The position numbers and the translations under genes are program-made. Shown in pieces: positions 4,233 to 32,060 of a DNA stretch of 33,392 nucleotides (positions are counted from its first letter, which is position 1; every line of letters begins with the position of its first letter). Below the pieces are notes generated by a model. It was not told the DNA's origin and searched no databases. It saw only the letters and a list, made by a program, of their open reading frames with translations. The stretch comes from Jimgerdemannia flammicorona (taxonomy: Eukaryota): positions 1-33,392 of the forward strand of contig RBNJ01000313.1 in NCBI GenBank assembly GCA_003990765.1, given 5' to 3'.

Positions 4233-4356
4233 CCAATCCATAGTAAACAATAGCCTGCACCTCGCATCGTACAAGCTAATAGCATAGTGAAGTTTGCCAC
4301 AATGTAGTATACCTTAGCCTTAGTCACGCCCCCCTCCCCCATAGCTAGCAAACTTG

Positions 4357-5141: not shown

Positions 5142-6104
5142 ATATATATACAGAGCACTCAGATATATTGAAACAGAGAACTACAAAAAACCAAACAAAC
5201 AACTACAACTTTTGAACATATACACAACCATGATCACTGAGATCTATAACTATATCTATACTGACATTTGGAATACCATTGTCAACCAAGCCATACCTCT
5301 CCTTCTCCTTATGAATATTCATAGTCTAGCACCTCTCTACTTCATAAATGCCTGATAGAATACTCTAAATATGCTCAGTGAAGCCCACTAAATTGGACAA
5401 ATCTCAAACTACTACCAGATCAGCTACCTCAGAAGATATGGTTGAATATTACCATAACATAGATATTACCCAGATGTCTTAACACCAGAAACTCATTGCC
5501 TGCAAATACCAAGAACTCTTTATGAGTATAGCACCTTTATTTCCTACCTCTAAGCTATTACTACAGAAATGGTTACCACTCTGTCCTATGGCCAAATTGA
5601 CAATATGGTATAAGAACTCAACCACAAGTATATCAAGTATATCCAGACCACAGACAGAACCTTTCCACATCCTGATGACTATATCCTACAAATGTCTCAA
5701 GTTGGATATACTATGAAGGATATCTACAATATAATTTAGTTTAATAATAATAAAGCAGAAGATAATGATCCCTTTAATACTGACATGACCTCTAGCCAAG
5801 GATTCCAGCTAGCCCTGATCACTCTGCCAATCTTATTGATAAACTTACAATAGTTTATAATCACCTACAAGACCTATTGGGATAATGACCACTAGCATGA
5901 GTACTAATCTACATTTATATCTGACTACTTTACTACAATGAAGAGATCAGGGAACACAACTTATATCTTCAGACAACTCTTAAAATCAAACCAACAACTC
6001 TACTACCTGAGTATGAGTAATATGAAGAACAGCTGCCAGCTTACTATAACCCAGCAATACATAGTACTATAACTTATAGAAGATATACAGATAGCAAATC
6101 TGAT
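5142..6104 (+). repeat. B 5' LTR, left segment
   Basis: Direct repeat of ~25445-26420, differing mostly by transitions. Confidence 0.9.
6091..6104 (+). repeat. LINE-a target-site duplication ATAGCAAATCTGAT (second copy 12012-12025)
   Basis: Exact 14-bp direct repeat; the empty site is visible in the 3' LTR at ~26407-26420. Confidence 0.95.
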
Positions 6105-6187
6105 CAACCTTTCTTTGCTATAATTCACATTACACACACTTTTACAACACACTTTCAAGTCGTTTATTGGAGAAAGATACTAAGATA

Positions 6188-8218
6188 ATATCAACGAGCA
6201 AGTGAACCAACATGTGTACTAGGTCAGGCAGATCTGGGGCCTTCAACTGGCAATATGTTGGGAGAGGGTATGGGCTTGGAATGGGGTCCTTTGGTGGCTC
6301 AAGTGGGCAGAGCAGCTTGGGTAGTAGAGGCGGCACTGGTGGGGGGGCTGGAAGGCAGCAGGGGAGGAGCTTTGCAGACATGCTGAGGCCTGGAGGTTAG
6401 CTGATGAGAGCTCGCAATAGACAGGCAGGAGGGAAGGGGAAGCAGAAGGTGGGGGATGCTGGGGGTACTGGGCCTTTGCTGGTGGGAGGTGGGGGAAGTG
6501 GAGTAGCTGCTGGGGGTAGTGGCAGGACTGCTGATAGTAGTGTGACTGGGAATCTGGCAAAAAATCCAAATGTGATAGTTGATGTGGGAGCTAGACAGAT
6601 GGACCCGAAAAGGAAGGAAGACCTGGCAGATAGTGTGATGGGACTGGCAGTAGCACTATTACTCAAGAAATCGATCTTGGAGTTTACAACCACCTTGTGT
6701 TTCCGGGGCTTGGTGGTGATAGCGAGAATGGTCCTGGGGCTCATTTCGAAGCAGGTGGCTGGGGCAGCCTCAGTGAATTACTGAAGGGTCTGAAGGGGGT
6801 GGAAGTGGGCTTTGAGGAGGCAGGCCCACTGGATGAGGCCCTGAAGACTAGAGTAGTAATTGGGGAAGTAGTGGTCCCCATGGTGTGGTGCTTGAGGTAG
6901 GACCCCAGAGTAGTGCAGCTTCTGGTGAGGGAGTGCCTATGGTGACAAAGGAGGAGACTAGGAGGTAGGTGGAGGAGGTGATGGCAGAGTATAGTGAAAT
7001 AGTGGACATTGGCTTCCAGATGTGAGAGGGGACAACATTCAGGACAGGCAATGTCAATGTCAGGATTAGGCTGGCAGGGAAGGAGGCCACAGGAAAGATG
7101 AGTGAATGGCCCTTAGTGCTGATGTGGGGGGCTTTTGTCTGTAAGGTGTCGAGGGTAAAAGGGAGTAAAGAGGAGAAGGAGGACCTGTTGGAGGCTCTGG
7201 AGGAGTTGAGTGGTACTGTGGAGAGGAGGGCGAATGCTTGGAAGCTATATGAAGAGTCGATGCATCTGGAGGTTGTAGATAGGAAATATATCTATACTGA
7301 CAGGAGGCAGTGGGAGCAGGCCCAGGGGTGCAAGAGGTAGAGGGAGCTTCTGGCAAGTATGAAAGGAGAGGTGAAGAAGAAGTTGGTTGGGGCTGAGGAG
7401 TTTAGAGTTGTCAAAGCCAGTGTCTGGACTAGCAAAGGAGGAGAGGAGGTGGAGGTGAATAAGGAAGAGGCAGGGAAGGCACTGGACAAGGATCCCTATG
7501 CAGACAGTACCTTTGAAGTTTGGGAGCAGGATTTGGATAGCACCCCCCCCCACTTATCAGGTGGGGCCCAGTTGGGAAGAGAGGAGTAGTGGAGGATGTG
7601 CTGATGCAGGGGGCCCAGCGAGTTCACTTTGGAGTTCCAGATGTGGTGAGAGGGGGCCAGGTGGTGGCAGTTAGTGAGGATAAGCTGGTGGATATTCCAG
7701 AGGAGGAGTGGGATGAGGCTGCCAGTGTGAGAGCAGATACCACAATGATGGATGCTGGGCAGCCAGGGACTCCTGGAGAGAAGGAGGTGGGGAACCTACT
7801 GTGGATGAGCAAGGTGATGGATAACCTCACAGCTGAGGAGTTGGGAGAGGTTGACCTGCATGTGGTGCTAGAGGAGCATTGGGCACAGATTCTGCATAGA
7901 GATGGGGTGGTGGAGGCATTGAAGGTGGAGATACTTGTGATTTTCAAGGAGAAGGAGGGATATGTGGTAGATGAGGTGAGGGAGGCTGAGTTGGTGGTTA
8001 CTGCTGGTGAGCAGACTGCCTATTGTTGGGCAGAGCATCATGGGTTGCAACTCTGGCAGAAGGCTTGCTTGAAATATTGGGAGAACTTCGAGGAAAGGGA
8101 GGATAGGGCAATGGTGGAACTTTTGGCTGGGTTGGAGACAAAGGCAACTGAAGAGAAGGCACTGGCTGCAGAGCATGACTTGGACTTGGCACAGGAGGAG
8201 CAGAACGCAGATTTGTAG
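6188..8218 (+). pseudogene. LINE-a ORF1 (Gly-rich N-terminus, probable RRM-like core, acidic C-terminus)
   Basis: ORF-track fragments are co-linear with LINE-b ORF1; position is upstream of APE; the domain call is inference. Confidence 0.75.
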
Positions 8219-8249
8219 AGGGTGCAATTGTTAAACAACATTATTCCTT

Positions 8250-11200
8250 ATGAACAGTACAACTAGTATTTTTTCTTTGAATATAAATAGGCTACAGAGA
8301 TCAGGGCAGTGTAGGAACATTTTTACTTAGCTTAGGAGATTGGAGACTGATCTCTTTTTACTGCAGGATGTATGGTGTAAGGATGAGGAAGATTAAGTAG
8401 AGTGGGCCAGAGAATGGGGAGGGGCTACTGCTTGGAATAGCAAAGTGGTGATTCTGGTGAGGAAGGGTAGAGGGGACTTGGGTGGAATTCAGAGCTGGGG
8501 GAACCATTTGGTCTGAGGAGAATGGTACCAACCTGGGTGGGAATCAGTGAGGGTTGGCTCCTGCTACTGCCCTGCAGTTAGGGGTGAGCAGATTGAGTAG
8601 ATTAGAGATCTGTTGGAGGAGGGTGTTTTCTTAGAGGAAGGTGTCAATGTTCTGGGAGGTGACTTTAATATGGTGCAGGATCTATGGCTAGATAGAACTG
8701 ATGGAGGATGGAGTGTAGGTGGGAAGAGTGGTGGACTGGATAAGTGGGAGGAGGTGGAGAACCTTAGCTCCTTAGGGGATATGGACAGAATACAGTGGGG
8801 TGATAGGAGGGTCTATACATACTGGGTAAATGGACTGGGTACAAGGATTGACTGGATTCTGATAGCTGAATATTGGGGTGCCAATGTTTGGAGGACTCTG
8901 GAGGTGGAGTGGTACCCTTGGTCCAATCACTGAGGGCTATTGGGGCAGGGACAGTTTGGGGGGAGTGGAGATAGACCTGGACATTGGTGCCTTAACTCCT
9001 CCCTGCTGGCTGTGAAGGGGTTATGGGACCCATGGGTGGAGGATGTCCAAGTGAAGATTGCCACCTGGATGTATGAGGGATCATCTGTGGATGTCCGGTG
9101 GATGAGGTTGAAGGAGGCTGTGAGGGTTTATTGGGGAGGAGCTAGTAGGGAGGCTGGGAGGCAGAGAAGAAAGTGAGTATGGTGCACTTCTAATAGGCTG
9201 ATTAGACTGCAGATAGAGTGGGCTGAGTTGCTTCATTCTGAAGGAGTGGAGGATTGGAGGGTAGAGCAGGTGAAATTGGAGGTAATGGAGCTGCAACAAA
9301 TATTGTGAGCAGAGAAGGAGATTTATATGAAAGGAATGGCTGCCAGACTGAGGTGGCAGGGGCTTGAGGAGGGAGAGTGGCCCACTAGATACCTGTCAAG
9401 GCTTCTCCAAGCTAGGAGGGTGTGCCAGCGATAGAATGGGGTCTTGGATGCCAAGGGAGACTTGGTGCATGGCATGCAACAGATCTTGGGAGTATTGAAG
9501 GAGAAATGGAGGGGTCTGTGGAGTGAGGAGGAAGGGGGGGCTGATGAAGAGACAATTGAAGATACACTAGAGGAGTGGGTGCCACCACATGTAGAAGGAC
9601 TGGGTGATTTGATCTTACTGGTCCAGGAGGAGGAGATCCAGAGAGTACTTGTGGCAACTAAGCTGGGGACAGCACCAGGAGAGGATGGTTTATCTTGGGA
9701 CTTCTGGAAGAAGATGGTGAAGGTTCCTGGAGTATTAGGAGAGATGGCTGCCCTCTGTGACCATGTTCTTCTGAATGATGAGTGGGTTGGCAAGCAGGAC
9801 TTGGAGCTGGTGGCCTTATTGTTCAAAGATAAGGAGAGGAGAGAGGACTGGAAGAACTGGAGGCCGATCATGCTTCTGGATATAGACAGAAAGTTGGTAA
9901 CAAAGGTTATTGTTGTGAGACTACAGAAAGTTGTCCAATAGGTTCTGGGTGAGGAGCAGCGAGGCTTTGTGGGGGGCAGGCTTATCAGGAATGAGACTGT
10001 CTGAGTGCACAGCATCATTGAGAGGACCCAGGCTTGTGGACTGGATGGTAGACTGGTCTTTTTGGACCAGGAGAAGGCCTATGACCATGTTTGGTGGGTA
10101 TGGCTAGGCAAGTTGCTGGATAGAATTGGTGTTCCCCCAAGGTTTCGGGCTTCTATGCTAAATTTGATGGAGGGCAGTAGGGCAGTACTACTGTGTAATG
10201 GTCACTGGGGTTTGGCATTTCCCTTGGAAAGAGGAGTTCCTCAGGGAGACCCATTGTCTTCTATCCTTTATGCCCTTTTGTTGGAACCTTTGATGGATAG
10301 GATATGTCAATGGGTGGCAGGGCTCTCTATGTATGGTATGGTGTGGAAGGTGGGGGCTTTTGTGGATGACATAGTAGTTAGACTTGGATCAGTAGTGGAT
10401 GTTGAGACACTCAAGGAGACAGTAGAATGGTATGAGGCACACTCTGGGGTGAAACTCAACTGGCATAAGTGTGAGACAATGGTGTTAGGGAATGGGCTGG
10501 TGGGAGGGGATGTCATTGGAACAATTGTCCCCACAGGAGAGGTGGTGTGGTATTTGGGCATCTTCCTTTCTATATATGGATCTGTTTTGCCATGAGTGTG
10601 GTGGGAGAGGAGGGTGGCCATTTGGGGAGAGGCTCTTAGAGGTTGGGGGGGTCGCCACATCTCTCTGGCAGGGCAGGTGTCAATCCTGAATGTCTACTGG
10701 TTCCCCAAGCTATGGTATGTGGCCTATCACTTAGACTTCCCAGCTTAGGTGGTGAAGAGACTAATGAAACTGGCTAGAGATTGGATTTGGGCTAAGAGGA
10801 GGTCCCAGATCAGTTGGGATACTCTTGTAATGCCAGTGGTTAGGGGTAGACTAGGCCTTGTGGATTTCCCTAAGCAGCTGCACTATCTGTGAGCTTGGTG
10901 GTTGAAAAGGGCTATTGAACTGCAGGGAGGAGGTTGGGTGCCACTGCTGCAGAAGGTGTGGGAGATAAGGTTCTCTCCTTAGGGATCCATAGGAGGTTTG
11001 CTCTCTCTGGTGAGCCTGACTGGAAGCTGATGGCTGTGGTATAAGGGCTTCTGGTGGGGGGTGGTAGATGGAGCACACCAGATAGGACTGCACTGGCAAG
11101 GCAATGAGGGGGAGGTGCTGTGGGGTCCAGCTATGTAGCAATGGGACAGACTCCTTCTGGGGGGAATTCCACTTACTGAGTTTGATATTGGAGATAGAGT

Positions 11201-11909
11201 GGAGTATCAGTGGGGTCTTGGCCAGGATCATTGGCCAAGTAGTTGGCAGGCTGTAGAGATTGGCAAGAAGTGGGACTGGATAGGAGTCTGGTCATGGAGT
11301 GCTGAGCTGTAGTAGTGGCTTACTTCTAAGTTCTGGATGGTATGGTGGTGGATGCTGAGGAGGAATATCATGTTGAATTTCCATGCTGGGCATCTGGTAG
11401 AGGGTGGCCATTTAGATTGTGAGAAGTGTTATAATGTAGGGCAAGTTGGGGGATTTGTGCAAACACCTGAACATTGGCTGGGAGAGTGTGAGGTTCTGGG
11501 GGACTTTTGGATAGCAGTAGAGAATCAGCTGAGTGTAGTGAGGAGACCAGATAGAGAGAGAGGTCATTGGGAGGATTTGAAATCTTGGCTAGTGGGGGGG
11601 GTGGGCAGTGGTTGGCTCACTGTAAGGTGGGTATTAGCAGTGTGGGTAGGGCTGGCTGGACATTGGCTCTTTGTTTTTGAGGAGGGGTAACAGATGGGTC
11701 TACAGGAGAAGTTGTTAAGGTGGGAGGGGTTGATGGGGGATCTGCTGACTGGGTGGTGGGTGGGTTGGGGTCCCCAGAGTGGTAAATGTCATTGTCTGGT
11801 GGAAGGAATCTGTGAACAGAGTGGTGAGTAGGTGGAGATAGTGTTAGACAAAGTGATCTTTCATCAAGTAGGAATAGGAGAGGGGGGCCCCCCTAGGGGG
11901 ATTGGATAG
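8250..11909 (+). pseudogene. LINE-a ORF2: APE endonuclease, reverse transcriptase, C-terminal Cys/His motif
   Basis: SLNIN, LLQD, GGDFN, RIDW, SNH; APGEDG, NWRPIMLL, LDQEKAYD, GVPQGDPLS, AFVDD; CEKC...EHWLGEC; ends PRGIG*. Confidence 0.93.
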
Positions 11910-11974
11910 GGTTGGGCATTGTGTAATATTTAGATGATAGACAGTGTTTTAATAAAGGGAGAAGTCCAAGTGAC

Positions 11975-12011
<37 letters not shown>

Positions 12012-12014
<3 letters not shown>

Positions 12015-12922
12015 GCAAATCTGATGATAGTGAAGATGATATACTCCTCCTTTATCTATTAACTCTATACCCAGTATATAAGACAGATGATACTATCCTT
12101 TGAGATGATAACATGGTCCTAATATATTATTATCTGAGTAAACAGAGAGAAGTAATCCAAGAACTACTCTTCTTAGATGATTACTTCATCAGAGATAATA
12201 TCTTTGATGGTAATGTCTCAAAGACTACCCAGTTAGTATCTAAATCTATAGATAGCTTAGCAGTCATTAGTATAGTTAGATTAGTCTTATATGATATGAC
12301 TATATACTGATATAGCAGTCAGATGATCTCTTGACATATCAGTTCACTCTTGTACTATATGACTGTATTCTGACTCAGCAAGGTACTAAGTGCTATACTC
12401 ATATTTAGTATAGTCCAGATAGTCTCCCATTAGTATAAATACCCCCTCTCTCAGACCTCAGAAACTCAGACTTGAATAGATTCAAACACAACTCCTAAAT
12501 ACTTCTCCACAATATCCCTTTATACAACTACTCCTAGTATAGCAATATTATGAATAGTAAATAAACCTATTTAATAATCAACAAATTACTCTTAAGTAAA
12601 TCTATACCCCAATAGGTCTTACTCCTAATCATATTATAAAATTTTCTAATTGAGTATTATCTGCAGCAATATGTCAATTTAACTAAGCTGGTCTTAGTTT
12701 CTTGAACTTTCTGAAATATAGAAAATCCTGAACATCTAGAACTAGTATATAAAAGGACTTTGGTTAAGACATTAACTTGATCTTGAAATCAATAAGTATA
12801 GAGGACATACTCTATATGAAATTAATCTTGACCTTAAGAAAACAGTTTTCCAGAATATCCAGAACTTCCAGAAAATCCTTTTAGAACTATGTAATAATAC
12901 TTTAATAAGTAATCCTCTTATA
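12012..12922 (+). repeat. B 5' LTR, right segment
   Basis: 12012-12300 matches ~26407-26699; TATAAAT at 12434, AATAAA at 12560; ends CTTATA, the inverted repeat of the 3' LTR start TATAAG. Confidence 0.8.
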
Positions 12923-15890: not shown

Positions 15891-16266
15891 TGACCATCAA
15901 GAAGAGACAACACAATTTCAAACTACAAGGTGAAAAAGACCTGCTCAGTTCTAGTAATTCTGGTCTAAAGATCACTCACATCAACAAGCTACAACTCAAG
16001 AAATTGACCAAGAAATGCCCTCTCTTTACTATCTGTATCTGTCCATCCAAAGGAGAATCTGAAAACCTCAAAGAAGACTTTTCCAAAGTTGACAGCTATA
16101 TCAGACCTATACTACAGAAATACCAAGACATATTTCTGAAAAAACTCCCAAAAGACCTACCACCTAAATGAGCAGTAGACCATGTATCTTTCTCCAGTAA
16201 CATTCAGATTACACAACCTTCTGACAATACTCACAATACAGTTTTTGGAGAAATGATATTAGTAAT

Positions 16267-18272
16267 ATGGCAAGTAATGAGAATTCTGAGGTATATACTG
16301 AGCAGAGGGGCCTAACTGACAATATGTGGAGAGGGGCCCAGGCTTGGGGGAAGTATGAGAGACTTGCTAATGGGAGGACATAGAAGGGGAGAGAGTAGTA
16401 TTGGAGGACAGAGGATCAGGAGAGTGAGCTTTATAGATAAGATAAAGAGAAGACAGCCAGTAACTAGACTAAAGAGCTGGTTGAGGAGAGGCAAGGAGAT
16501 GGCAAAGAATGTGGGGCAGTAGCTGCAGGGGAGAGTCTCTCTGGAGGGCCAGAGTAGTGGAGCTGGCAGTATAATAGCTGAGGGGGTGACTGCTAATGGG
16601 AGTATGATGCGCAATCTGGAAAAAAATCTAGATAGGACTGCTGATAGTAGACTGAGTTATGGGATGGGCATGAGGCCTAGTGACCTGGCTAATAGTATAA
16701 TGGGCCTGGTGGTGGCCTCATTACTCAAGAAGTCAATCTTGGAGTTTGCAGTTATCTTGTACTTCTGGGGCTTGCCAGTAATAGCAAAAATAGTCCTGGG
16801 GCTGATTATGAAGCAGATGGATAGTGCAGTATCTATTAAGTTTCTGAGGGGTCTGAAAGGGGTGGAGGTGGGCTTTGAGGAGGCTGGGCCATTGGAGGAT
16901 ATGCTGAAGGCTGGGTTGATGGTTAGGGAGGTATGTGTCCTGATGGTATACTGCTTGAGGTGAGATCCCAGCATAGTGTAGCTCATAGTGAAAGGAGTTT
17001 CTATAGTGACTGCTGTGAAGATGAGGAGGAGAGTTGAGGAAGTTATAGTTGAGTATGGGGAGGTAGTCAATGTAGGGTTCAGGGTGTGGGAAGGGACCTC
17101 TTTCTGAACAAGAGATATTAATGTTCAGATTCAGTTGACAGGGGAGAGAGGCTATAGAGAAGGCTTATAATTGGCCCTTAGTGATAGTATGGGGAGCCTT
17201 CATGTGCAAGGTAATAAGGGTGAAGGGGAGTGAGGAGGAGAAAGAGGATCTATTAGAGGTACTGGAGGAGCTGAGTAGTATAGTGGAGCAGAGGGTGAAG
17301 GCTTGGAAGATATATGTAGAGTTAATATACTTGGAGATTGTAGATGAGAAGTACATCTGCATTGATAAGGGGCTGTGGGAGAGGTCTCAAGGATTCAATA
17401 GGCAGAGAGAGTTGCTGATGAAACTAGAGGAAGAGGCAAAGAGGGCTACTAGTGGTAGTGAGGATACTGGAGGAGCCAAAGTGAGTGTCTGGACTAGCAG
17501 AAGTGGAGAGAATGTGGAGGTTGGTCCAGAGGAGGCCAGGAAGGCACCAAGCAATGACCCATATAAGGATAGTATATTTGAGGTCTGGGAGGATACTTCT
17601 TCTTCTCTTATCAGGTAAGGACCAGGTGTGAGAAGCTGGGTGGCAGAGGATGTACCAATGTGTAGTACCCAGTGAGTGTACTTTGGAGTTCCTGAGGTGG
17701 AGAAGGGGAGATAGGTGGTGGTAGCTAGAGAGGATAAACTGGTGGATATCCTAGAGGAGGAGTGAGATGAGACTATAAGTGCAAGAGCAGATACCTCAAT
17801 GCTGAGTAAAGGAAGGCCAGTAACTCTAGGGAGAAAGGAGGTGGGAAATCTACTATAGATATACTGGATGATGAATAACTTTACAGCTGAAGAGTTGGGA
17901 GAAGTGGACCTGAGAGTGATAAGTGATGAGCATTAGGCATGAATTCTGTATAGTGACAGAGTGGTAGAGGTGCTAAAGGCAGAGATACTTGCAGTTTACC
18001 TGGAGGAGGAAGGATATGAGATTTATAAGGAGAGGGAGGCCAAGCTGGCAGTTGCTGCTGGTGAGTGGGCTGTCTTCTGTTGGGCAGAGCATTATGGATT
18101 GCAGTTCTAGCAGGAGGTCTGTCTGAAGTATTGTGAGGATTTTGAGGAAAAAGAGGATGGGGAACTAACTGAACTTCTGATCAGATTGGAGGCAAGGAGA
18201 GTTGAAGAGGAGGAGGTGGCCATAGAACACAACTTGGACTTGGCACAAGAAGGAATAGATGTAGAGTTATAG
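16267..18272 (+). pseudogene. LINE-b ORF1
   Basis: Shares LLKKSILEF, GVEVGFEEAGPL and KGSEEEKEDLLE with LINE-a ORF1. Confidence 0.75.
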
Positions 18273-18304
18273 AGAGCAAGCATGACTTTTAAATATTATT
18301 TCTT

Positions 18305-21300
18305 ATAAATAGTACAACAAATATTTTTTCTTTGAATGTGAATGGGTTGAGGAGTTCAGTTATATGTCAGAACATTTTTACTTAGTTGAAGATCCTGGAG
18401 GCTGATCTCTTTCTTCTGCAGGATGTTAGATGTGAAGATGACTTAGATAGACTGAAATGGACAATGGAATGGAGAGGTGTGGTAGTTTGGAAGGATAAGG
18501 TTGGGATCCTGATATGGAGAGACAGAGGGGAGATATAAGATATAAGGAGCTGGGGGGGACAGGCTGGTCTGGGGAGAGTGGATTCGACCAGGTTGGGAGC
18601 TGGTTATAGTGGGGTCCTACTACTGCCCTGCTATATTTAGAGAGAGAGTAGATTGGGTAAAGGGACTCCTGGAGAGTGAGACCCTTGCAGAGACTGGAGT
18701 GGACATTCTTGGAGAAAATTTTAATATGATCTGAGAGGCTTTGGTAGATAGGACTGATGGAGGGTAGGAGACTGAGGGCAGGAGTGGAAGGTTGGAGATA
18801 TGGGAGGAAGTGGAGAGATTGAGTGCTCTGGTGGATACTAATAGGGGGTTCTAGGGTGATCAGAGGATATACACACACTGGACAAATGGTCTGAGTACAA
18901 GGATTGACTGGATGCTAATGGCAGAATGCTGGGGCTTGGATGTTTGGAAGTTACTGGAGGCTGAGTGATGTCCATAGTCTGATCACTAGAGACTGTTGAG
19001 ATGGGGATACTTCAGGAGGAGTGAGGATGGGTCTGGACATTAGTGCCTCAATTCTTCTTTGTTGGCTGAGAAGGAGTTGTGGGACAAGTGGGCAGAGGAC
19101 ATTCAGCAGAGAATGGAGGGCTGGGTACAAGAGGGGGCTACAGTTGGTATATGGTGGGTAAGGTTGAAGGAGGCTGCTAGGGTTTACTGGAGTGAAGCTG
19201 GCAAGGAGATATAAAGGTAGAGAAGGAGGAGGGTGACCTGGGCTTCTGCTAGATTGGCTGGGCTTTTGGAAGACTGGGCTGGACTCTTGGCCCTGGAGGG
19301 GAGTGGAGGACAGGAGGGTGATGAGGGTGAGGTTAGAGGTTGCAGAGTTACAACAGGTGTTGAGGGAGGAGGAAGAGATGAGAGTGTGGAGTTTGGCTGC
19401 ATGACTATGCTGGCAGAGGTTGGAGGAGGGGGAGAGGCCCTCTAGGTACCTTTCAAGGACCCTCTAGATAAAGAGTGTGAAGCAGAGATGGGAAGGAGTT
19501 CTTGATTCTGGTGGTCTGTTGGTGTATGGTTCACAAGACATTCTGGGCTCATTGAAGGAGAGGTAGAGTAGTTTGTAGAGTGAGGAGGAGGGTGGGACTG
19601 ATGCTACCACTATAGAATGTACTTTGGAGGAATGGTACTTACTGCAGATTGAGGGGCTGGATTGCTTGGTAGTGCCAGTTCAGAAGGAGAAAAGTTGCCA
19701 GATTCTTGTCATAACTATGCTAGGCACAGTACCAGGAGAGGATGGTCTGCCCTGAGACTTTTAGAAGAAGATGGTGGATGTCCCTGGAGTAATGGGGGAG
19801 TTGATGGCACTTTGTGACTTTGTACTATAGTCTGGAAGGTGAGTGGGGGAGCAGGATCTGGGGCTGGTGGCTCTGCTCTTTAAGGACAAGAGTAGGAGGG
19901 AGGACTGAAGGAACTGGCAGCCCATCATGCTACTGAACATGGACAGGAAGTTGGTCACTAAGGTGGTGGTGGCACAACTGCAGAAAGTGGTCCAGTAAGT
20001 CTTAAGTAAGGAGCAGCAAGGTTTTGTAGGGGGTCAGCTTATTAGAGATGGCATAATCTGGGTATATGGTATTATTGAAGAGACTTGAGTCTATGGACTG
20101 GATGGGAGATTGGTCTTCTTGGATCAGGAGAAAGCATATAACCATGTATGGTGAGTCTGGCTGGCAAAGGTTCTGGACAGAATTGGTATCCCTCAGCAGT
20201 TCTGAGTGATAACAATCAGCCTACTGGAAGGGAGTAGAGCAGTGCTCATGTGCAATAGATATAGAGGGGTGATATTCCCCAGAGGGACCCACTGTCTCCT
20301 ATCTTGTATACTCTGTCCTTAGAGCCATTGATGGATAAGATTAGATGGAGGATTACAGGGCTCACTATATTTGGCATTGTGTGGAAGGTTGGAGCCTTTG
20401 CAGATAATATAGTGGTTGGTCTGAGGTTGATTGCTGATGTCAAGAAACTCCAGAAAACAGTAGAGTGGTATGAGATACTCTCTGGGGCTAAACTTAACTG
20501 GTGCAAGTGTAAAACAATAGTATTAGATAATGGCCTAGTGGGAGGGGATGTCATTGGAACAATTGTCCCTACTAGAGAGGCTGTGAGGTACTTAGATATC
20601 TATCTCTCCATATATGGATCAGTCCTACCATAACCTTGGTAGGAGTGATGAGTGGTCATCTGGGGGAAGGTCCTCTGTAAGGTTGGGGAGGCTGCCACCT
20701 TTCTTTAGCAGGGTGTATTGCAATTTTGAATATCTACTAACTACTGAAGATGTGGTATTTAGTATACCATCTGGAATTTCTGGCCTGGATAGTGAAGAGG
20801 CTATTGAAGCTAACCAAAGATTAGATCTGAGCTAGACAGAGAAGTCAGATTAGCTGGGAAATCTTATCATTGCTAGTGGCTAGAGGAGGCCTTGGGCTGG
20901 TTGACTTTCTGAAGAGGTTGCATTGTCTGAGAGTATAGTGGTTGAGGAGAGCAGTAGAACTGAGGAGTGGTAGCTGGGTTTCTCTGATGAAGAAGATTTG
21001 AAAGATAAGGTGCTCACTGAGAGGAACTATTGGGGATTTACTGTCCTTGGTTGGCCTTCCAAATAGTTGGCATATGAGATTTAAGAGTTTCTGATAGAGA
21101 GTAGTAGATGGAGCTCACCATATTGAAATTCACTGGCAGGAGGACAAAGGAGAGGTGTCTTGGGGCCCACTAATATGGAGATGGGATCAAGTATTGCTAG
21201 GGGATATCCCCCTTATGGACTTTGATATTGGCAATGGAGTAGAGTACAAGAGGGGGATGGGACAGGATATATGGCCTAGCAGCTGGCAGATGGTGGGAAT

Positions 21301-21946
21301 TGGAGAGGAGTAAGACTGGAATGAAGTCTGGGCCTAAATTGTAGAGATAAGGTGATAGTTACCACCCAAGTACTGGGTGGTTTGGTGGTACATACTGTGG
21401 AGGAATATTATGCTCAACTTTCACTCAGGCCACCTTGTGGAGGGGGGGGGACTTTGACTGTAAGAAGTGCTACAATATGGGACAGGAAGGGGGGTTTGTG
21501 CAGATTCCGGAATATTGGCTGGAGGAGTATGTAGTGCTTGGTAATTTCTGATTAGTGGTCAGGAATAGATTAGGTGCTGTGCATAGGGGGGATGGTGAGC
21601 AGGGTCAATGGAATCTGAGGAATAGATTAGTGGGGGGAGTGGAGAAGGAGTGGCTGACTTTGGGTTGGGTATTAGTGATATAGGTGGGACTAGCAGATCA
21701 CTGGCTATTTGTTTTTAAGGAAGAGAAGCATCTGAGTTTAGGAGAGTGATTGGAGAGGTGAGAAGGGTTGATGGAGGACATTTTGACAGGCTGGTGGCTG
21801 AGATGGGGTCTGCAGGGAGATTGGTAATATTATTTGATAGAGAAAATTTGTGAGCAGAGTGAGGGGAAAGTTGGAGTAGTAGGTGGTAAGGTGGTTTTCA
21901 AGTATAAGAATATAGAGGGAGGGGGCTCTCTAGGAGTATTGGGTAG
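18305..21946 (+). pseudogene. LINE-b ORF2 (APE-RT-Cys/His)
   Basis: SLNVNGL, LLQD, RIDW, SDH, NWQPIMLL, LDQEKAY and AFADN; more stops and indels than LINE-a. Confidence 0.9.
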
Positions 21947-22015
21947 TGGGAGGAGTTAATGTAATTTTATGTAATAGATTGGTAATAAAAAAAAAAAAAA
22001 AGTATAATAGACCAT

Positions 22016-24657
22016 ACCATCAAGACCATCCCAGATTCCAAGCCATCCTTCAAGTTAATCTACCACATGTCTTTGAGAGAATTGATGTACTCAAGAAAGA
22101 GATTGATGAACTCCTAGAATAAGGATTCATTAGACCCAGTATATTATTCTATAGAATACTAGTTCTTTTTATTATCAAGAAAGGAGAAGATCTGCAAATA
22201 TATATTTATTATCAAGACCTCAATGAACAGATCATCAAAAACTATTACCCACTACTTCAAATTGATAAAATATTCAATAGGCTTACCAACCCACAATTCA
22301 TAAGCTCTTTTGATCTGCTAGCAAATTGTCATAAAAGAAGAAGATATCTACAAAACTGTCTTCCAAACCTACTATAGATATTTCAAGTTCTTGGTTATGC
22401 CTTTTGGCTTAACTAATGCTCCTACAACCTTTCAGATACTAATGAATACCATCCTATACCTATATCTAGACAAATTTATTGTTATCTATATTAATGACAT
22501 CCTAGTCTTCAGCAAAACTCTGGAGAAACATCTCAAACATCTTGAACTAGTACTACTGAAGCTTTGAGAAAACTGACTCTTTGCAAAACTCAGTAAGTGT
22601 GAATTTCTCCTGAAGGAAATTTAATTCTTTATACACATTGTCACTCCTAATAGAATCAAAGTAGACCCCAGCAAAATCTCTACACTCAATAATTGGCCAA
22701 GACCCAAGAAGCTAAAAGACCTCCAGTCATTCCTGGGACTAGTAAACTATTACTGATAATTTATTGCAAACTTCACCAAGATTGCTATCACCCTCACTTA
22801 AATAACCAAATACAGTAAAAAAGAAGAACAGCCTTAGACTGCAAAGCAAGAAAAAAACTTCAACAATCTTGTAAATTAGAGACCTGAATAAGATATAGCC
22901 TTTCAAGCTCTAAAGAATGTCTTGATAACCACTCCAGTACTTCAAGCAGCAAACTCTGCTCTACTATATGAAGTTACTACTAATACCTCTGACCTAGCTC
23001 TTGGAGCAGTACTTATGCAAAAAGGACACCCTGTGGCCTATCATTCTTACAAGTTCAATAATACCAAAATAAACTATATAACTTACAAGAGAAATGTTAG
23101 CCATTGTAGACACCCTGATCAAATGGTAACCATATCTTGAAGGAGTACACTTTACTATTTTAACAGATCATAAATTATTAGTCAATATCAAGACCTAGGC
23201 TACCCTTTCCCAAAAGTAAGTCAGATGGATGAAAGTTCTCACCAACTTTGACTATGAAATCCAGTATCACCCTGGTAAGGAGAATATTATTACTGATATA
23301 ATTTTCAGACCACTAATTGAAAAGTTATCCAAACTCTCACATTGGTTACCAACTCTATTATGGAGTAAATTATTACAGTATATGCTAATGATAAAGAAGC
23401 TCAAGTACTCTGCAAAATCCTAAGCAGTGATAATATTGACCAGTACACTCAGTATCATTAATGCTAATTGAAGGACAATGCTATCTACTATAAGGACAGA
23501 TTGTATATTCCAAACAATTGAGACCTCTGAAGGACTATCTTATTCAAATGTCCTGATACCCCTATAGCTAGATATTTAGAATTTGACAAATGCTATGAAG
23601 TTATTTTCTGAAACTTCTATTGGCCCCACATAGTAGATCAGTTAAAGATCTACATCACTTCCTGTGATATCTGTTAATACAATAAGTTCTCAACACTAGC
23701 AAAACCTGACCTACTCTACCCTATCTCAGTACCATCTGCTAATTGGAAACAAATCTCTATGGACTTCATTATACAACTACTCCAAACCAAGAATGGAAAA
23801 GATATAATTGTTGTTTTTATAGACTATCTCAGCAAATAAGCCCACTTCATACCTACTGCTACAACTGCAATAGTATCTGAAATTACTATACTCTTATTTA
23901 ACAACATCTTCTACTATTATGGTCTTCCTAAGATCATTATTAGTGACTGAGATCTGAAGTTTACCAGCTACTTTTGGAAAGCTCTCCATACTTACCTTGG
24001 AACACAACTTGCACTATCTACAGCCTGTCACTCTAAAACTAATAGTCAAACTAAAAGAATAAACTGAACTCTAGAACAAATACTAAGAAACTATATTTTC
24101 TATAGATAAAATAATTGATATAAACACCTTACTGTAGTTGAGTTTGCCTATAAAAACAGCAAGCAAGCCTCTCTTAAAATGAATCTATTTTTCACCAATA
24201 CTAGACAAAATTCAAACACCCCTCTGACACTTATCTGAACTACTGATGAACTCTCTACTATCAAAGCTATCAAAGAATTCTTACTCTGAATGTACAACTT
24301 AAGTCAGATTACAATTGAGAATTTATCTCAAGCTCAAGAACAGTAGTTACAGTATGTCAACCAGTACTACTGAGAAGAAACATTCAACATTGGAGAAAAA
24401 GTTCTATTAGATATTTAAGAATACTAAGTTGATAATCTCAAGCACAGACTATCTATAAACTGAACAGCAAATTCATTGAACCATCCAAAGTCATCACACA
24501 AGTCTCTCTAACTTTCTACAAATTGGTACTACCAGATACCATTAAGATTCACCCAGTCTTCAATGTTTAATATCTCAAGCAATATAATGAAAATAATAAC
24601 AAGCTATTTCCAAACTAAACTGCAAACCTACTTGTACCTGTCATTATTAATGACTAA
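22016..24657 (+). pseudogene. B pol: RT, RNase H, integrase
   Basis: GFIRPS, YPLLQID, MPFGLTNAP, YIND (22487; decayed YIDD), TNTSD (decayed TDAS), TDH, ISMDFI, SD*DLKFTS, IHPVFNV. Confidence 0.92.
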
Positions 24658-24825
24658 GAAGAATATAAAGTTAAACAAATCTTCAACAAATGTAGTCACA
24701 AGAACCATCCAGAATACCTTGTCAAATGGAAAGGTTATCTAATCCATAATGTAATATGGGAACTCAAGACTAATCTCCAGAATACTACTAACTTAGTTCA
24801 AGAATATAATTCTTTGAACAACTAA
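24658..24825 (+). pseudogene. B integrase C-terminal chromodomain
   Basis: EEYKVKQIF...EYLVKWKGY...WELKTNL...LVQEY. Confidence 0.92.
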
Positions 24826-25253
24826 AACCCAAATACTCTGGTACCTGTCAGTCTATACTATATATTACTCCTCTCAAATATTAAGTGTTCTTATATTTAT
24901 TATAAACAAAATCAAGAACTCAGCAAGACAAGACAAAAGAATACTAACTTTCTAGAAAAATAGCAAAACTGAAAGCCAGTCTATTCTCTCTATACTACTG
25001 GTGGGAAATGAGGTATAAATATTTAAGAAGATTCCTTAGAGGAAATTCTCCAGCTATGAATAATGTCAGAATCACTTCTGGTATATAGCATTAAATATAT
25101 AACCCTTTAATATATAAATCCAATATATTAGGCAACTGTACTATAAGCATGCTACTTTCTGAGAAAAATAAATATTATCAGACTTTTAACTATCCAAATA
25201 GTATAACAATACTAGACCAAAAATAAAAGACCTTGACAAGGATATTGAAAGCT

Positions 25254-25267: not shown

Positions 25268-26699
25268 TATAAGTGCACAATCTCTAAGCCACCAAAATTG
25301 CACATCACCCTCTGAACAAATCTGGAAATCTCATATAAGATTATGAAGCTGAGTCAAACTAAAGTTACAGATCATGAAGCTGAGTTAACTTGAAGTCATA
25401 GAATACAAGATTTATACAAACAGAATCTTACCAATAAAGACTGAATATATATATACTGAGCACCCAGATGTATGTATCAAAACAGAGAACTATAACAAAC
25501 TAAATAAATAACAATAACTCTTGAATATATGTATATACAACTATGACTACCAAGATCTACAACTATATCTGTACTAATATTTGAAATACTATTATCAACT
25601 GAGCCACATCTCCCCTACCCCTTATGAATATCTATAGTCTAGTATCTCTCTACTTTATAGAAGCTCAATAGAATGCCCTAAACATGCTCAGTAAAACTCA
25701 CTGAATCAGACAAATCTCAAGCTACTACCAGATCAACCACCTCCTGGAATATATAGTTGAACATCACTATGATACAGATATTACCCAAATGTCTCAATAC
25801 CAGAAACTCATTACCTACAAATATCAAGAACTCTTTTATAAGTATAGCACCTTTATTCTCTATCTCTGAGTTACTATCATAGAAATGGTTACTACTCTAT
25901 CTTATAGCCAAATTAACAATATGGTATAAGAACTCAACTATAAGTATATTGAGTATATCCAGACCACAGACAGAACTTTCTTATACCCTGATGACTATAT
26001 CCTACAAATGCTCTAAGTTAGATATACTATGGAGAATATCTATGATATAATCCAGTTTGATAATGATAAAGCAGAAGATAACAATCCATCCAATATCAAT
26101 ATGATCTTTAGTTAAGGATTCCTGCTAGCCCTGATTACTCTGCCAATCTTGCCAATAAACTTACAATAGTTCATAACCACCTACAAGACCTATTGAGATA
26201 ATGATCACTAGTATAAGTACTAACCTGCATTTATATCTGACTCTTTAACTACAATGAAGAGATCAGAGGACACAATCTGTATCTCTAGACAACCCTTGAA
26301 ATTGAACCAACAACTCTACTACCCAAGTATGAGTAATATAAAGAATAGCTATCAGCTTACTACAACCCAGCAACATATAGTACTGTAACCTATAAAAGGT
26401 ATATAGACAGTGAATCTGATGAAAGTGAAGATAATGTACCCCTCTTTTGTCCACCAACTCCATACCTAGCATATGAGATAGATAATGCTATCCTATAGGA
26501 TAGTGTCATAGTTCTAATATATTATTATCTGAGTGAACAGAGTGAAGTAATCTAAGAACCACTCTTCTTAGACAACTACTTCATCAGAGATAATATAATT
26601 AATGGTGATATTATTGAAGACTATCCTAATAGTATCTAAATCTATAGATAGCTTAGTAGTCATTAGTATAGTTAGATTAGTTTTATATAATATAACTAC
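25268..26699 (+). repeat. B 3' LTR (cut by the A2 insertion)
   Basis: Follows the PPT; direct repeat of the 5' LTR segments. Confidence 0.88.
25543..26639 (+). pseudogene. LTR(U3)-encoded ORF of family B, 3' LTR copy (~365 codons)
   Basis: MTTKIYNYIC...IEDYPNSI*; needs one 1-bp frame correction near 26243 and reversion of transition-type stops. Confidence 0.65.
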
Positions 26700-29080
26700 T
26701 GTGGTGTTGTTTATGTATAATGAACTTCGACTGCATGGCTCAATGTGTGTCACTTGGTGAAGCGCGCGATGGATGTGAGTGCGTTCGTGACGATTACGGG
26801 TTGATGGTCACATGATCGGGTCGTTCGAAACGTGTGATAATAGCGGGACTTCGATTGTTCAATGATGGTGGCTCAATTGTTTAGTGGATGAGGTCGTTTG
26901 ATTGTTCAATGGCTCAATATCTAGTGGAAAAGGGCGGTGAATAACTTGGCGGTGACGACGGGCTTTAAACAGTTTGTGGCGCAGTAGGTCGGGAAAACGG
27001 AGGTTGACAGCTTGCTCGTCCATCTTGACTTGTTAACTTGAAAGGTTTCCTGGCAGTCATTCGGGTCTTTGGCAGTGGTCTTGTATCCTTTGGCTGGGTA
27101 ACTTGGGTTCCTTGGGTTCTTTAGCTGTATTGCCAGGGTCTTGAATCTCAAATGGCGGTCGAATGTACGGTCTGAATGGCAGTTCAAATGCATGGCGGTC
27201 GGGTAACATTTTCTTTAAACACAAACTGACTGAATTGCAGGCGGTCTGTGGTCTTGAATCCTTTTCGTGGCGGCAAAATTGGCAGGCGGTCCATGGTCTT
27301 GAATCCTTGGCTGGGTAACTTGGGTCTCGAATGGCAGCGGTTGGGTAACATTTTCTTTCCATGGCAAGAGAAAATTCTTTAACTTAAACTTCCGAGCGAT
27401 CCGTTGCTCTAGGTTGTTATCTTGTTCTCAGAATTTATCCAGTCTCTTGGAGGCAGTGTGTTTTCTCTGTAAAACTGTCTGACTGAGGTTTATTCACTCT
27501 AAGAATATGGGTTATTTATACAAGTTTGCTAGCTATGGGGGAGTGGGCGCGCCTAAGGCTAAGGTATACTATATTGTGGTGAACTTATGCTATTGGTTTG
27601 TATGATGTGAGGTGTAGGCTATTGTTTACTATGGATTGGGTTGTAGGAGATAGCAATGCTGGATTTGGACTTGCTGACAAAACGCTGAAAATGGTGGCAC
27701 TGGATAGCAATGCTGAATTCGGATGAGCTGATATGATACAATGATTGTTGCCAGAAACAGTTGTGGAGGGTGGCAATGCTGAATTTGGATCTGCTGACAA
27801 AATGCTGAAAATGGTGGTACTGAGTAGCAATGCTGGAAACGGACTTGCTGACAAAAGCTGGGTTCTCATGGCTGATGGACGGTACTCTAGAGGAAATAGT
27901 ACCCTTCGTCCGTGGTGGGCAAATCTTGCTGGGTTGTGATTTCTTCTTCATCATATCTCTCCTCAAAGGGGGGAAGCGCCGGCCAAGAGGTGAGGGGGTA
28001 GAAAAGTGGCCAGTCATCTTCAACAACATTCTCCAACCCTTGAACAGCTTGGATGTAGACAGAGGACTGGTAGACTCTCTGTTGCTCCTCTTCTTCTTCT
28101 GAAGACTCATCAGTTTCAGTGTCAGAGGGGGTTTCTTCAGGGGCAGGGTCTTGGAGTTCTTGGGCCTTCTCTTCAAAGACAGGAACTTCTTGGGCTTCTT
28201 CTTGATTCAGTTTCCAAATGATGAGGTGTGAATTGTGGCTAACAGAGTGGTGGGTGGTTGGGGTAGCTCCAACAGGTGTCTCTATAGTGATGGGCAGTCC
28301 TTCAAATATCTCCATAAGACTCATTAGGTGACCTTGATGGTTGTCTCGGAGTGGAGTGGTGTGGAAACCTGGCTGAGTAGGTTCAGTTTGTTGGCTTCCT
28401 ATGGCGATGCAGTTGCTGCCAATAGCATTGGCTACTTCAGATTCTATTCAGTCAGCATCTTCAGTTGAAAGGTGGGAGAGGCTGCCAGCTGTTACTCCTT
28501 GCAAGTGTGCTATAGTCCAGGGAATATGGCAGAAGATTTGATGGACATGGAGGGCTCTCTTGATTAGCCGGCTGGTGGTTAACATTTCGGCAATGAGGTC
28601 TTTCTGATCACCTTCTTGAGTCTCATTGCGAAGGTGGTATCTGATTTCATAGTCATGCCAGAGGGTCATTCGTTCAGTAGTGTCTTTGAGCTGTTGGGTC
28701 ATTATATACTGGTAGTTGATGAAGTGTCCAAGGTCCTCAGTATAGAAGTTCAAGTGTTCGGAAGTATCTGGGCACCAGATGGCCTTCTTGATAGCTTCAA
28801 AGATCAGAGTCTTTGGGCCAGGCAAAGGGGTAGAGCGGCGGGAGGTCTGGTTGGATCAGTGAATGGGAGGCATTGTGTGGTGGGTACTTGGTTCTTTGGT
28901 GCCGATCCCTGAGGTGGAGTATGGTTCCTTAAATAACATGGTCTTCATTTTGGCTCAGATTATCTTGCCTTCTTTTGGGATGGTTACCTAATAGGTCAGG
29001 CTGTCTATTTGATTGTCATGCCATTATATCATCTGATCTTAGCAGTCACCGGTACTCTGTTTTCAATTGCGTACGTCACA
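26700..29080 (-). repeat. A2 3' LTR (~2.4 kb)
   Basis: TGTGACGT...ACACCACA on the minus strand, preceded by PPT AAGGGGCAGA (29081-29090). Confidence 0.87.
27887..28873 (-). pseudogene. LTR(U3)-encoded ORF of family A, A2 copy (987 bp, two internal TGA)
   Basis: Single frame; TGA at codon 6 and at 28450-28448, where A1 has CAA and TGG. Confidence 0.87.
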
Positions 29081-29405
29081 TCTGCCCCTTGCAAAATTAG
29101 AGCCATCCTCGGTGGTAAGGGTTACACAGAGTTGGGTGGTCTTAACTCCAGGGATGAGCAGAATGCTGGCACATTTGTGAGGACTGACCATCCTTGTCTA
29201 GGGCAAGGGCTCTCATAGTCATAGCTGGGGGTTTGAACCCATCAGAAATAGTATTACTTGTAATCCGAGGCAATTTCTTAGTAACAATGTCTATCACGTG
29301 GATGAGCTTGAGTCTGGTTCCAACATTGTTGGCTTTCTTGAGTTCCGAGTGAAACGTCCATCATATCTCCAGCAGAGATGACACAGATAGAGTGAACAGG
29401 ATTGT

Positions 29406-30626
29406 TCAAATGCGTTTTACTTCTCTTGAGTAGTAGAGTCTTATATGGTTGCGATGTATCTTGGTCTTGAGTATAACTCCATCCAAGGTCTTGAGTTGAT
29501 AAGTGTGGTTCGAGAATACTTGATGTATGAGATAGGGGCCTTCCCATTTTGGTTCAAGCTTGGCACTCCAATTTCCTTCTATGATGGTACAGTACACCAG
29601 AACCTTTTGTCCAATGAGCAGGGGTTCAAGGTCGGCTTTGTGGTCGTAGTACCTCTTTTGTCATTCTTGTGCCTTGGCGATAAATCCTCGTGCTTGCTGG
29701 CATACGTCGTGTAACCAGGTGATCTCTTCTGTGACTCGCTTTGACAGATCTAGCTGGACTGGTTCAGTAGGATCTTGTGCTTCTTGGCCATACACTAAAT
29801 AGAAGGGGGTCCATTGGGTAGCAGTTGCCTTAGAGGTACGGATGCTGAACAGAATTGCCAGTAGATAGATATCCCAGTTTAGTTGATCTCTGGTTCTACT
29901 GAGACCTCGCTTGATGGTCTGGTTCATTCATTCAGTGAGTCCATTTGCCTGTGGGTGGTAGGCTGTTGTTGGTCATAACTTGATCTTGAAGTTGCTTGCA
30001 AAGGTCTTCATGGCTTGGTTGATGAATTCTCGGCCTTGGTCTGTAATGATTTCCTTGGGCACACCATGGTGGCTGAAAATTTCATCATACAGGATCCCAA
30101 TAATTGTCTGGGCATTGGCAGTCTCGATGACAAAGGCTTCAGGCCATTTTGTCAAGTAGTCTTCAATAGTGAGGATGTAGTATCTTTCTCGGCTGGTTAC
30201 TGGTAGGGGTCCAATAATGTCTATTTCCAGTCTTTGAAAGGCTCTAGCTGGTGCTGCGATCGGTATTAATGGTGCTCTATCAGTAGGCTTTTGTCGGTAT
30301 CTTTGGCAGGTATCACATTGTTGAATATGGGTTGAAATTTGTTTTCTCATCTTGGGCCACCAGTATTGCTTCTTGATTCTTGCGATTGTGGCACCAATTC
30401 CTCAGTGTGCATTTTGGTCATAATTTGTTGTCAGGATCTTCAATATTTCTTCTTCTCTTGGAACTCAGGTGTATTGCTCTCCTTCTACTCTCCAAAGTTC
30501 ACCATCGCCTTCTTGGAATTTCTTGAAATTTCTTTGGATAAATAACTTGTGAGCTGGTTGGATTCCTTTCTTGAAGCTTCTATGGTGTAGACTCCAGGTG
30601 AGGGCGAGGCGCAATTCTTGGTTCAT
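29406..30626 (-). pseudogene. A2 integrase ORF
   Basis: Same motifs and same 1221-bp length as in A1. Confidence 0.92.
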
Positions 30627-32060
30627 TTGGGTGAGCGGAAAGCAGCCTTCTCTCATGGGGGCTCCTTCCCTTCTTGTTGGTTTCGCAGGATTCTTGACAG
30701 GGTATTGATGTTGGAATTCTTAGTACCTTTCTTGTAGACAATAGTGAACTGATATTCTTGCAGAGACATGATCCATCTAGCGAAGATTCCTGAGGGCTCC
30801 GGCTTGTTGAACAATCATTGAAGAGCTTGATGGTCAGTGATGAGGGCGAATCTCTTTCCCAAGAGATAGTGTTGGAAGTGGTCCACAGCCCAAACTACTG
30901 CTAGGCAATCCAACTTAGTGGCTCCATAGTTTGCTTGTGTTTCATTTGTGGCCTTGCTAGCATATTCGATAACATGCTCTCTCTTCTGGTCATCTTGCTG
31001 AGACAGAATTGATCCAAGTCCTAAGGCTGAGGCATCAGTTGCCAGGATGAACGGTTTGCCAAAGTCTGGTCACACCAGGACAGGGGCTTCGGTAAGGGCC
31101 TTCTTGAGTAGGTCAAATAACTTTTGTTATTCTTCTTTCCAGTAGAATGGTTGGTCCTTCTTGGAGATATCTCGGAGAGGTGCTGCCTTATCTGAAAACC
31201 TTGGGATGAATCGTTGATAATAGGATGCTAGTATAAGGAAGGATAGGGTCTCCTTTGCTGAGATCAGGGTTGGGTAATTCTTGACTTTCTCCACCTTGCA
31301 GGGGTCGGCATGTGTTCCTTGAGCTGAGACAACATATCCCAGATATTCGACTTGATGTTTTCCAAAGAAGCACTTCTTGGCATTGAGTCTGAGTCCTGAA
31401 TTTCGAATGGTATTGAATACTTCGTGGAGGTCTTGCAAATGCTGCTTGATTGTCTCAGAGTAGATGATTACATCATCTATGTACACTAGTATATTTCTTC
31501 CAATGAGGTCCCGGTAGACATAGTTCATCATTCATTGGAATGAGGCAGGTGCATTGCAGAGTTCAAAGGGCATTTGTAGGTATTCATACTGTCCTCGTCT
31601 GGTGATGAAGGCCGTCTTGCAGATATCTTCTTTGGCAATGGATATTACTTGGAATCCTTGGAACTGGTCGGTAGTGGTCATGTATTTGGCTTTTCCGAGG
31701 GCATTGATGAGGTCATCAATTCTTGGCAGTGGGTAGGCATCTTCTGTGGTGACTTTGTTGAGTTTTCTGAAATCCACGACTAATCTCCATCCTCCTTTCT
31801 TTGGTACTATGATTGCTGGTGAGGCCCAGGGGCTTGATGATGGTCTGATGACTCCATTTCGTAGCATTTTGTCTATGTGTTGTTGTTCGAATTCAATCAG
31901 ATGATGTGGTGTTCGGTAGGGTCATTGTCAGATTGGTCTTGCATCTCCAGTATGTATAGGGTGTTCTCCGTATTGATATGGTGGGAAGTTATTGTATGTG
32001 GTGGTAAATATATCTTTGTACTCCTCTATCAACTCCTGTATTTGTTGTTGCTGGTCCTTG
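30623..32060 (-). pseudogene. A2 RT + RNase H
   Basis: PYRTP, SPWASP, YIDD and TDAS motifs. Confidence 0.95.

Follow-up and report, generated by a model that had tools for sequence, protein, structure and literature searches.

Can the long terminal repeats (LTRs) of Ty3/Gypsy retrotransposons carry a conserved protein gene of their own? The question is raised by a stretch of 33,392 nucleotides from Jimgerdemannia flammicorona (contig RBNJ01000313.1, forward strand; this whole stretch is called the window here), which is eukaryotic repeat DNA with two kinds of Ty3/Gypsy element, element B being placed between two copies, A1 and A2, of element A. Each element has an open reading frame (ORF) downstream of pol, ORF-A and ORF-B, respectively, and an earlier note on this DNA had proposed that the two encode homologous, LTR-borne proteins exchanged between lineages. 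The results presented here lean towards a related reading, in which ORF-A and ORF-B would be decayed copies of one real, fast-evolving Ty3/Gypsy accessory protein family, sited in the LTR and inherited.

Probable homology of ORF-A and ORF-B

The relationship between the two ORFs is indicated by P0014, a natural intact N-terminal relative of ORF-B comprising 128 amino acids (aa) and 66% identical to it (one hit among 4390 candidates). A search with a hidden Markov model (HMM) of eight A-side proteins, containing no B sequence, matched P0014 at 18.2 bits (E 6.5e-8, for one planned comparison); none of 5000 shuffles reached this score, the best of them having 9.6 bits, and the match is collinear, HMM positions 22–142 corresponding to residues 4–126. 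An HMM restricted to the four members that diverge most gave 16.4 bits (E 2.4e-7, again with 0 of 5000 shuffles reaching it), and hhalign placed A and B side by side over 117 collinear columns (E 1e-4), the ORFs being about 20% identical. FI, 22 residues and Y-[EQ]-I follow each other with equal spacing in ORF-A and ORF-B, and a tail motif, an acidic run and then P-[LMW]-[FIV], is common to A, B, the relatives P0009 and P0011, and the ORF of the metagenome contig L001. The homology proposed in the earlier note thus held when it was put to a profile comparison with a shuffle control, and on sequence grounds ORF-A and ORF-B are very probably remote homologues.

Transition-tolerant scoring, in which each ORF-B codon is given the best profile score among its possible G-to-A decay ancestors, was used because B has decayed by transitions. 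The score of the ORF-B window copy was 45.8, compared with 22.7 ± 3.5 in codon shuffles (z 6.7; 0/200 reached), and the match is collinear, 25594–25959 aligning with HMM positions 31–155; the maximum elsewhere in element B was 27.0 over 120 other scoring windows. With C-to-T changes also allowed, the signal drops to z 3.5, and one of the 200 shuffles reached it.

ORF-A of copy A2 (28873–27887, minus strand; 328 codons plus stop; family HMM 388 bits) is interrupted by two in-frame stops, one at codon 6 and the other inside 28459–28439. Its translation reads, in order, IFEAIKKAIW, FI, 22 residues, YEIRYHL, DLIAEMLTTSRLI, HQIF, IAHLQGVT and EDDWPLFYPLTSWPA; the last motif (28021–27977) belongs to the acidic tail, which comes after the conserved N-terminal part. 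The counterpart in A1 (3032–4017, plus strand; 84–89% identity in tblastn; HMM 294 + 71 bits) has one frame change near 3211–3220, plus in-frame stops. ORF-B in the 3' LTR of element B (25543–26639, plus strand) reads literally, from 25543 on, IYNYICTNI, a stop, FI, 22 residues (two of them stops), YQINHLL, DITQMSQYQKLI, QELF, ILYL, a stop and VT. Its N-terminal domain can be read in the 25543 frame as far as about 26060, and the acidic tail, ESDESEDNVPLFCPPTPYLA at 26412–26465, lies in a different frame; an acidic tail is present in both ORFs, as the earlier note had it. The copy in the 5' LTR (5230–6107, with the tail continuing at 12029–12109, plus strand) shows two further changes of frame and is broken by the insertion of a long interspersed nuclear element (LINE). 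The stop within 26487–26504 arose after insertion, since the codon concerned is a different stop in each LTR copy, and the stop at 26637–26639, 59 nt from the LTR end, is present in both. All four window copies are decayed. The strings quoted earlier for ORF-A are literal; those for ORF-B are reconstructions from a copy full of stops, though P0014 agrees with them at three places, where it reads DIW, DITQMSQHQKLI and IPRLRATT.

Intact relatives of ORF-A are found in soil-metagenome data, with lengths of 291–342 aa and identities of 28–76%; the databases contain the family only as 'hypothetical protein' from such data. The uninterrupted P0001 (325 aa, 76% identical to ORF-A) is one of two hits among 729 candidates in a word-indexed search, and its cluster at 90% has six members. 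When all 1.84 billion representatives were scanned with phmmer, seven hits came out at E ≤ 1e-3, and the relatives found by phmmer include P0008 (36% identity to ORF-A), P0009 (34%, 342 aa) and P0011 (28%), P0008 and P0011 being shorter. P0009 is located on a 4848-nt contig and P0005 on a 19434-nt contig. L001, a single locus (1535 nt) from a metagenome scan with 168 matched pattern stretches, contains an intact 291-codon relative at 376–1251; a 33-nt direct repeat (170–202 and 1481–1513; 82% identity, spacing 1311 nt) flanks this ORF. Uninterrupted ORFs are thus present in at least three divergent groups (P0001/P0003/P0007, the L001 ORF and P0009), and the alignment of seven family sequences has 25 invariant columns. 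ORF-A represents a real gene, because intact ORFs persist in groups at 28–36% identity with conserved motifs.

Position of the gene relative to the LTR

For element B the position can be read directly. The 3' LTR of 1252 nt (25447–26698, plus strand) pairs with 5142–6107 plus 12018–12302, the two pieces of the 5' LTR (5142–12302, plus strand), which is interrupted at 6107/12018 by a poly(A)-tailed LINE flanked by a 14-bp target duplication. The pair shows 82.7% identity, with 195 transitions, 18 transversions and zero CpG remaining. The LTR boundary is genuine, because seven metagenome contigs continue past 26697 with the sequence found downstream of the 5' LTR, from 12303 on. ORF-B is present in both LTRs, starting 96 nt into the 3' one, and is therefore LTR-resident in B.

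For element A, no 5' LTR is present within the window. The presumed 3' LTR of A2 is 26699–28976 (minus strand); its end at 26699 is seen, and its start is placed by a polypurine-like run (28976–28960), which lies upstream of ORF-A in both A copies, about 430 nt after the pol stop, that stop being about 535 nt upstream of ORF-A. With this start, ORF-A would begin about 85–90 nt inside the LTR and would lie in the U3 (unique 3') region. The LTR-borne gene of the earlier note is accordingly a matter of observation in B and of a presumed boundary in A, and the gene can be described as downstream of pol, in sense orientation, on what is shown in B, and appears in A, to be the 5' side of the LTR.

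Control-like sequences surround ORF-A. The TATA-like motif TATTTAAGG (28927–28935, minus strand) stands about 55 nt upstream of the start codon in both A copies, and such a motif is also found just upstream of the L001 ORF. A tandem duplication of about 120 nt (27640–27851, minus strand; 80% identity), a candidate enhancer or binding-site region, lies between the ORF-A stop and the TATA box; Tandem Repeats Finder reported nothing in 25400–29200, and the duplication was found by a separate repeat search. The core block (27489–27520, minus strand) consists of TATAAATA (27520–27513) and AATAAA (27494–27489) and is conserved in A1 at 4357; this TATA/AATAAA block comes about 360 nt after ORF-A, with about 770 nt more to the element end. 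In three of the four metagenome runs, no other part comes close in summed contig depth to the stretch of about 55 nt containing the core block (27483–27537); contigs diverge on both sides of this stretch, and it seems to be common to many different LTR families in soil-metagenome data.

Three points weigh against an LTR position, or a strictly U3 position, as a general feature of the family. The LTR start of A depends on how the polypurine-like run is interpreted; the stop of the L001 ORF is directly followed by the purine run AAGGAGGGAGGA and TG (1252–1270), so that this ORF would precede its LTR rather than lie in it; and ORF-B appears to extend across the TATA-like block and to stop 59 nt short of the LTR end, so that a U3-only position misfits B. 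The matching promoter layout described earlier was not borne out, the A block coming after the ORF and ORF-B apparently running through the equivalent block. Strict U3 location is established for neither element, and the spacing between the ORF and the TATA-like block differs between A and B.

These points bear on the alternative that ORF-A is an ordinary extra ORF between pol and the 3' LTR, which the LTR boundary took in only in lineage B. The arrangement in L001 looks like a textbook polypurine tract and LTR start, a purine-rich run (27957–27941, on the sense strand) occurs within the 3' end of ORF-A as well, the window offers no 5' LTR of A for comparison, and extra ORFs at that very position are reviewed for plants (PMC7264820). 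On the other side, the polypurine-like run at 28976–28960 precedes ORF-A in both copies, element B shows that the family can occupy an LTR, and the position of the start codon in the B LTR, at 96 nt, resembles the 85–90 nt estimated for A. This alternative is possible, if less probable than an LTR-sited family. Contigs of related elements match the pol end of A and diverge at 29164–29172 into an A-rich run (sense CAAAAAAAAAG), so that some relatives have a different or shorter stretch between pol and LTR.

Descent of the gene and the repeat setting

The two elements belong to different Ty3/Gypsy lineages, as the earlier note had recognised. Element A is present as copy A1 (1–5141, plus strand) and copy A2 (33392–26699, minus strand), both delimited with translations, pairwise BLAST and Pfam; they show 88% identity over 5251 aligned columns in pairwise BLAST and 91% by MAFFT. 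The order of reverse transcriptase and then integrase, read from translations, is that of Ty3/Gypsy, and the integrase of A2 (29406–30902, minus strand) matched Pfam Integrase_H2C2 (E 7.5e-16) and rve (E 9.2e-13), the scan of this region revealing no family beyond these two and hence no chromodomain, so that A is a non-chromovirus. A search of the ESM Atlas with the reverse transcriptase piece of A found RVT_1 clusters, Streptophyta being the commonest recorded taxon. Element B, on the plus strand, is a chromovirus with a chromodomain at the C-terminus of integrase; the C-terminal part of integrase and the chromodomain (23500–24852, plus strand) matched Pfam SH3_Tf2-1 (E 2.3e-10) and Chromo (E 1.3e-09; 38.2 bits compared with a cut-off of 25.1).

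The pol regions of A and B are 26–35% identical, B being decayed, and the identity of the ORFs is no higher than this, so that the exchange between lineages suggested earlier is not required; judging from these identities, the gene was probably present in an ancestor of both lineages and passed down to each. Horizontal passage of the module between two Gypsy lineages by recombination seems unlikely. In its favour, A and B directly adjoin in the window and thus both kinds coexist, and extra ORFs are common to unrelated retroelement types in bdelloid rotifers (PMC5408684); yet the ORFs show no surplus similarity over pol, and the only intact B-type sequence found is too little for a tree of ORF against pol.

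Chance or composition, that is, unrelated extra ORFs that happen to be alike in size, position and acidic tail, is a rather improbable source of the likeness between A and B, although several results speak for it and so weigh against homology and against the family reading as a whole. The tblastn search of the window with ORF-A found no match on B at E ≤ 10; the family HMM touches 25606–25929 in the correct frame with only −2.0 bits; the literal ORF-B translation reached only z 1.9 on the A-family profile, with 8 of 200 shuffles as high; the HMM of the close A clade alone gave P0014 3.6 bits, a score that 42 of 5000 shuffles equalled or passed; hhalign puts the probability at only 57%; BLASTP of P0014 is weak (E 0.001 with P0009 and 0.017 with P0001); P0014 is the sole intact B-type sequence found; and acidic tails are frequent. 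Set against these are the two HMMs that no shuffle matched, an alignment collinear along all of P0014, the shared spacing of FI and Y-[EQ]-I, and the transition-tolerant score of ORF-B, which none of the 120 other scoring windows of element B approached. The weak score of the close A clade and the strong one of the divergent members imply that the link between A and B passes through a divergent middle clade.

The frame change between the N-terminal part and the tail, common to both B LTR copies, may mean that element B was inserted with a copy already dead. It is nevertheless very hard to accept that these reading frames are mere remnants of captured or junk DNA, without function and open by chance. 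In favour of such an origin, all four window copies are broken and the family is very rare (seven hits in the phmmer scan); against it, intact ORFs of 291–342 codons occur in groups only 28–36% identical with their motifs kept.

Several features of the surrounding DNA were also observed. The window is arranged as A1 in forward orientation, B, and A2 reversed, B having no recognisable target-site duplication; the 3' ends of A1 and A2 (...CCACA) adjoin the outer ends of the B LTRs directly (5100–5145 and 26695–26740). The junctions look like element DNAs joined end to end, or like an insertion at the centre of an A–A palindrome. Two related LINEs (67–72% identity) lie inside B, at 6108–12017 and about 16100–22000, both in sense orientation; the first, with its poly(A) tail, is accompanied by the 14-bp target duplication ATAGCAAATCTGAT. 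On the sense strand both are unusually rich in G and poor in C (G 34–37%, C 12–14%, GC skew about +0.5). Throughout the window the decay of the repeats is mostly by transitions, and between A1 and A2 48% of CpG sites differ, as against 5–18% of other C contexts, a pattern better accounted for by deamination of methylated CpG than by strand-specific editing. Eight sequencing runs contain part of the window, with a share of at most 0.16 each; soil metagenomes account for six of them, and the list includes no RNA run.

Protein features, putative function and known systems

The protein, about 330 residues long, has an N-terminal part of about 190 residues, predicted to be helical, with the motifs W-H-[DE]-Y-E-I-G-H, H-Q-x-F-R-H-x-P and F-E-G-P-P-I, and a C-terminal part of 80–150 residues, which is rich in proline, strongly acidic and interspersed with bulky hydrophobic side chains. 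In all six full-length sequences D+E make up 19–28% of the C-terminal part, its net charge is −16 to −28 and bulky hydrophobic residues account for 26–34%; by sequence, this composition is typical of acidic activation domains and fits a transcriptional activator, one of the two roles that the earlier note had thought plausible. No transmembrane segment was found (maximum Kyte–Doolittle 19-residue mean ≤1.09 in 6/6 proteins), and the protein is therefore not env-like. The histidine motifs were considered as zinc-binding and rejected, the histidines not being kept in P0014. YPLTS in the tail of the A clade (27977–28021, minus strand), which resembles the retroviral YPXnL late-domain motif, was considered as a late domain and rejected; it is absent from P0009, P0011 and L001, and the likeness is probably a coincidence.

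No known family was recognised by the earlier note, and the searches agree with this. Pfam at E ≤ 1 gave no family for any of the three window ORF translations or the seven family members, and neither a Pfam Gag family nor a zinc knuckle was found in these seven members. No PDB sequence was hit at E ≤ 10, and the family HMM matched nothing outside the ORF copies in a six-frame search of the window, which includes the B gag and part of the upstream region of A. In the ESM Atlas P0009 scored 0.88 at best, which does not attain the lead threshold. Confidence in the structure models is low, the predicted local distance difference test (pLDDT) score being 39.7 for the full-length protein and 58.8 for the N-terminal part, a point against the family reading; a Foldseek search of the PDB with the N-terminal model (pLDDT 58.8) found no match at E ≤ 0.001 (best E 1.1), and a wide VIA-align search with it found one chain with Z ≥ 5 among 48161 (best Z 5.2), which is within noise. 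The fold searches were thus not above noise, and ORF-A and ORF-B, by the sequence evidence, are to be placed in a real accessory protein family outside the described families, a variant of the extra ORFs of LTR retrotransposons.

As for function, the acidic tail and the TATA-like motif upstream of the ORF in A and L001 make a self-activating LTR factor the best guess, and it appears the most likely of the mechanisms considered, although only tentatively so. The mRNA would come from the 3' part of element transcripts or from a short transcript initiated at the TATA-like motif upstream of the ORF, the latter possibly produced by every LTR, and would end at the LTR's own poly(A) signal. The protein would act in the nucleus and activate its own LTR, its N-terminal part recognising LTR sequences, e.g., the 120-nt repeats, and its acidic tail recruiting the transcription machinery. 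A bolder version, which we regard as a long shot, would make each LTR, solo LTRs included, a self-contained gene, with a TATA-like promoter at its 5' edge and an mRNA of about 1.4 kb reaching its own poly(A) signal, encoding an acidic-tailed nuclear factor that would bind LTR repeats and activate all elements of the family or shield them from silencing. If this were true, it would be a retrotransposon analogue of retroviral trans-activators, predating the split between chromoviruses and other Gypsy elements.

LTRs are treated as non-coding control regions and are masked by annotation pipelines. Each element would carry two copies of a conserved LTR gene, and every solo LTR would retain one; such a gene might account for the ability of some families to raise or safeguard their own transcription, and would add a regulator-type accessory gene to elements usually credited with gag and pol only. 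Being absent from Pfam and the PDB, the family is currently invisible to annotation. Searches of the open-access literature, supplements aside, turned up no description of such a family, conserved and encoded within Gypsy LTRs.

ORFs in the U3 of retroviruses are already known, the superantigen gene (sag) of mouse mammary tumour virus (MMTV), a vertebrate betaretrovirus, being located in the U3 of the LTR. An ORF of about 320 codons filling most of U3 is the feature in common; Sag is a type II membrane glycoprotein, whereas the ORF-A/ORF-B family has no hydrophobic segment and no hit in Pfam or among PDB sequences, its models being weak. The trans-activator Tas/Bel1 of foamy viruses has its gene at the 3' end of the viral genome, in overlap with the 3' LTR and under an internal promoter; the protein binds DNA with its N-terminal part and carries an acidic activation domain at the C-terminus. 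The ORF-A/ORF-B family likewise has a structured N-terminal part, an acidic tail studded with hydrophobic residues and a TATA-like motif just upstream, but it shows no sequence or fold match to Tas and occurs in other hosts, and its activation and DNA-binding functions are putative. VANC is an anti-silencing protein of the VANDAL21 DNA transposons. CERV is an accessory protein of the Caenorhabditis elegans Gypsy element Cer1 (PMC10309623). Like the putative factor considered here, both are transposon-encoded accessory proteins that act on the expression of their own element; no sequence relation to either was found, and the gene positions are unlike.

ORF0 of the rice element Retrosat2 is described upstream of gag-pol and not in the LTR (PMC3485330), and the crapaud paper (PMC10787394) and a choanoflagellate survey (PMC6875170) have no bearing on an LTR-borne gene. 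The closest comparison is with the well-known extra ORFs (aORFs) of LTR retrotransposons, such as the env-like ORFs of plants and ORF3 of bdelloid rotifers, which PMC7264820 and PMC5408684 place in sense orientation on the 3' side of pol. An extra lineage-restricted gene downstream of pol, in sense orientation and without a cellular homologue, occurs there too in several element lineages. The ORF-A/ORF-B family differs from the env-like aORFs in having no transmembrane segment and no Pfam match; and while aORFs are described between pol and the 3' LTR, ORF-B lies inside the LTR and is hence carried twice per element.

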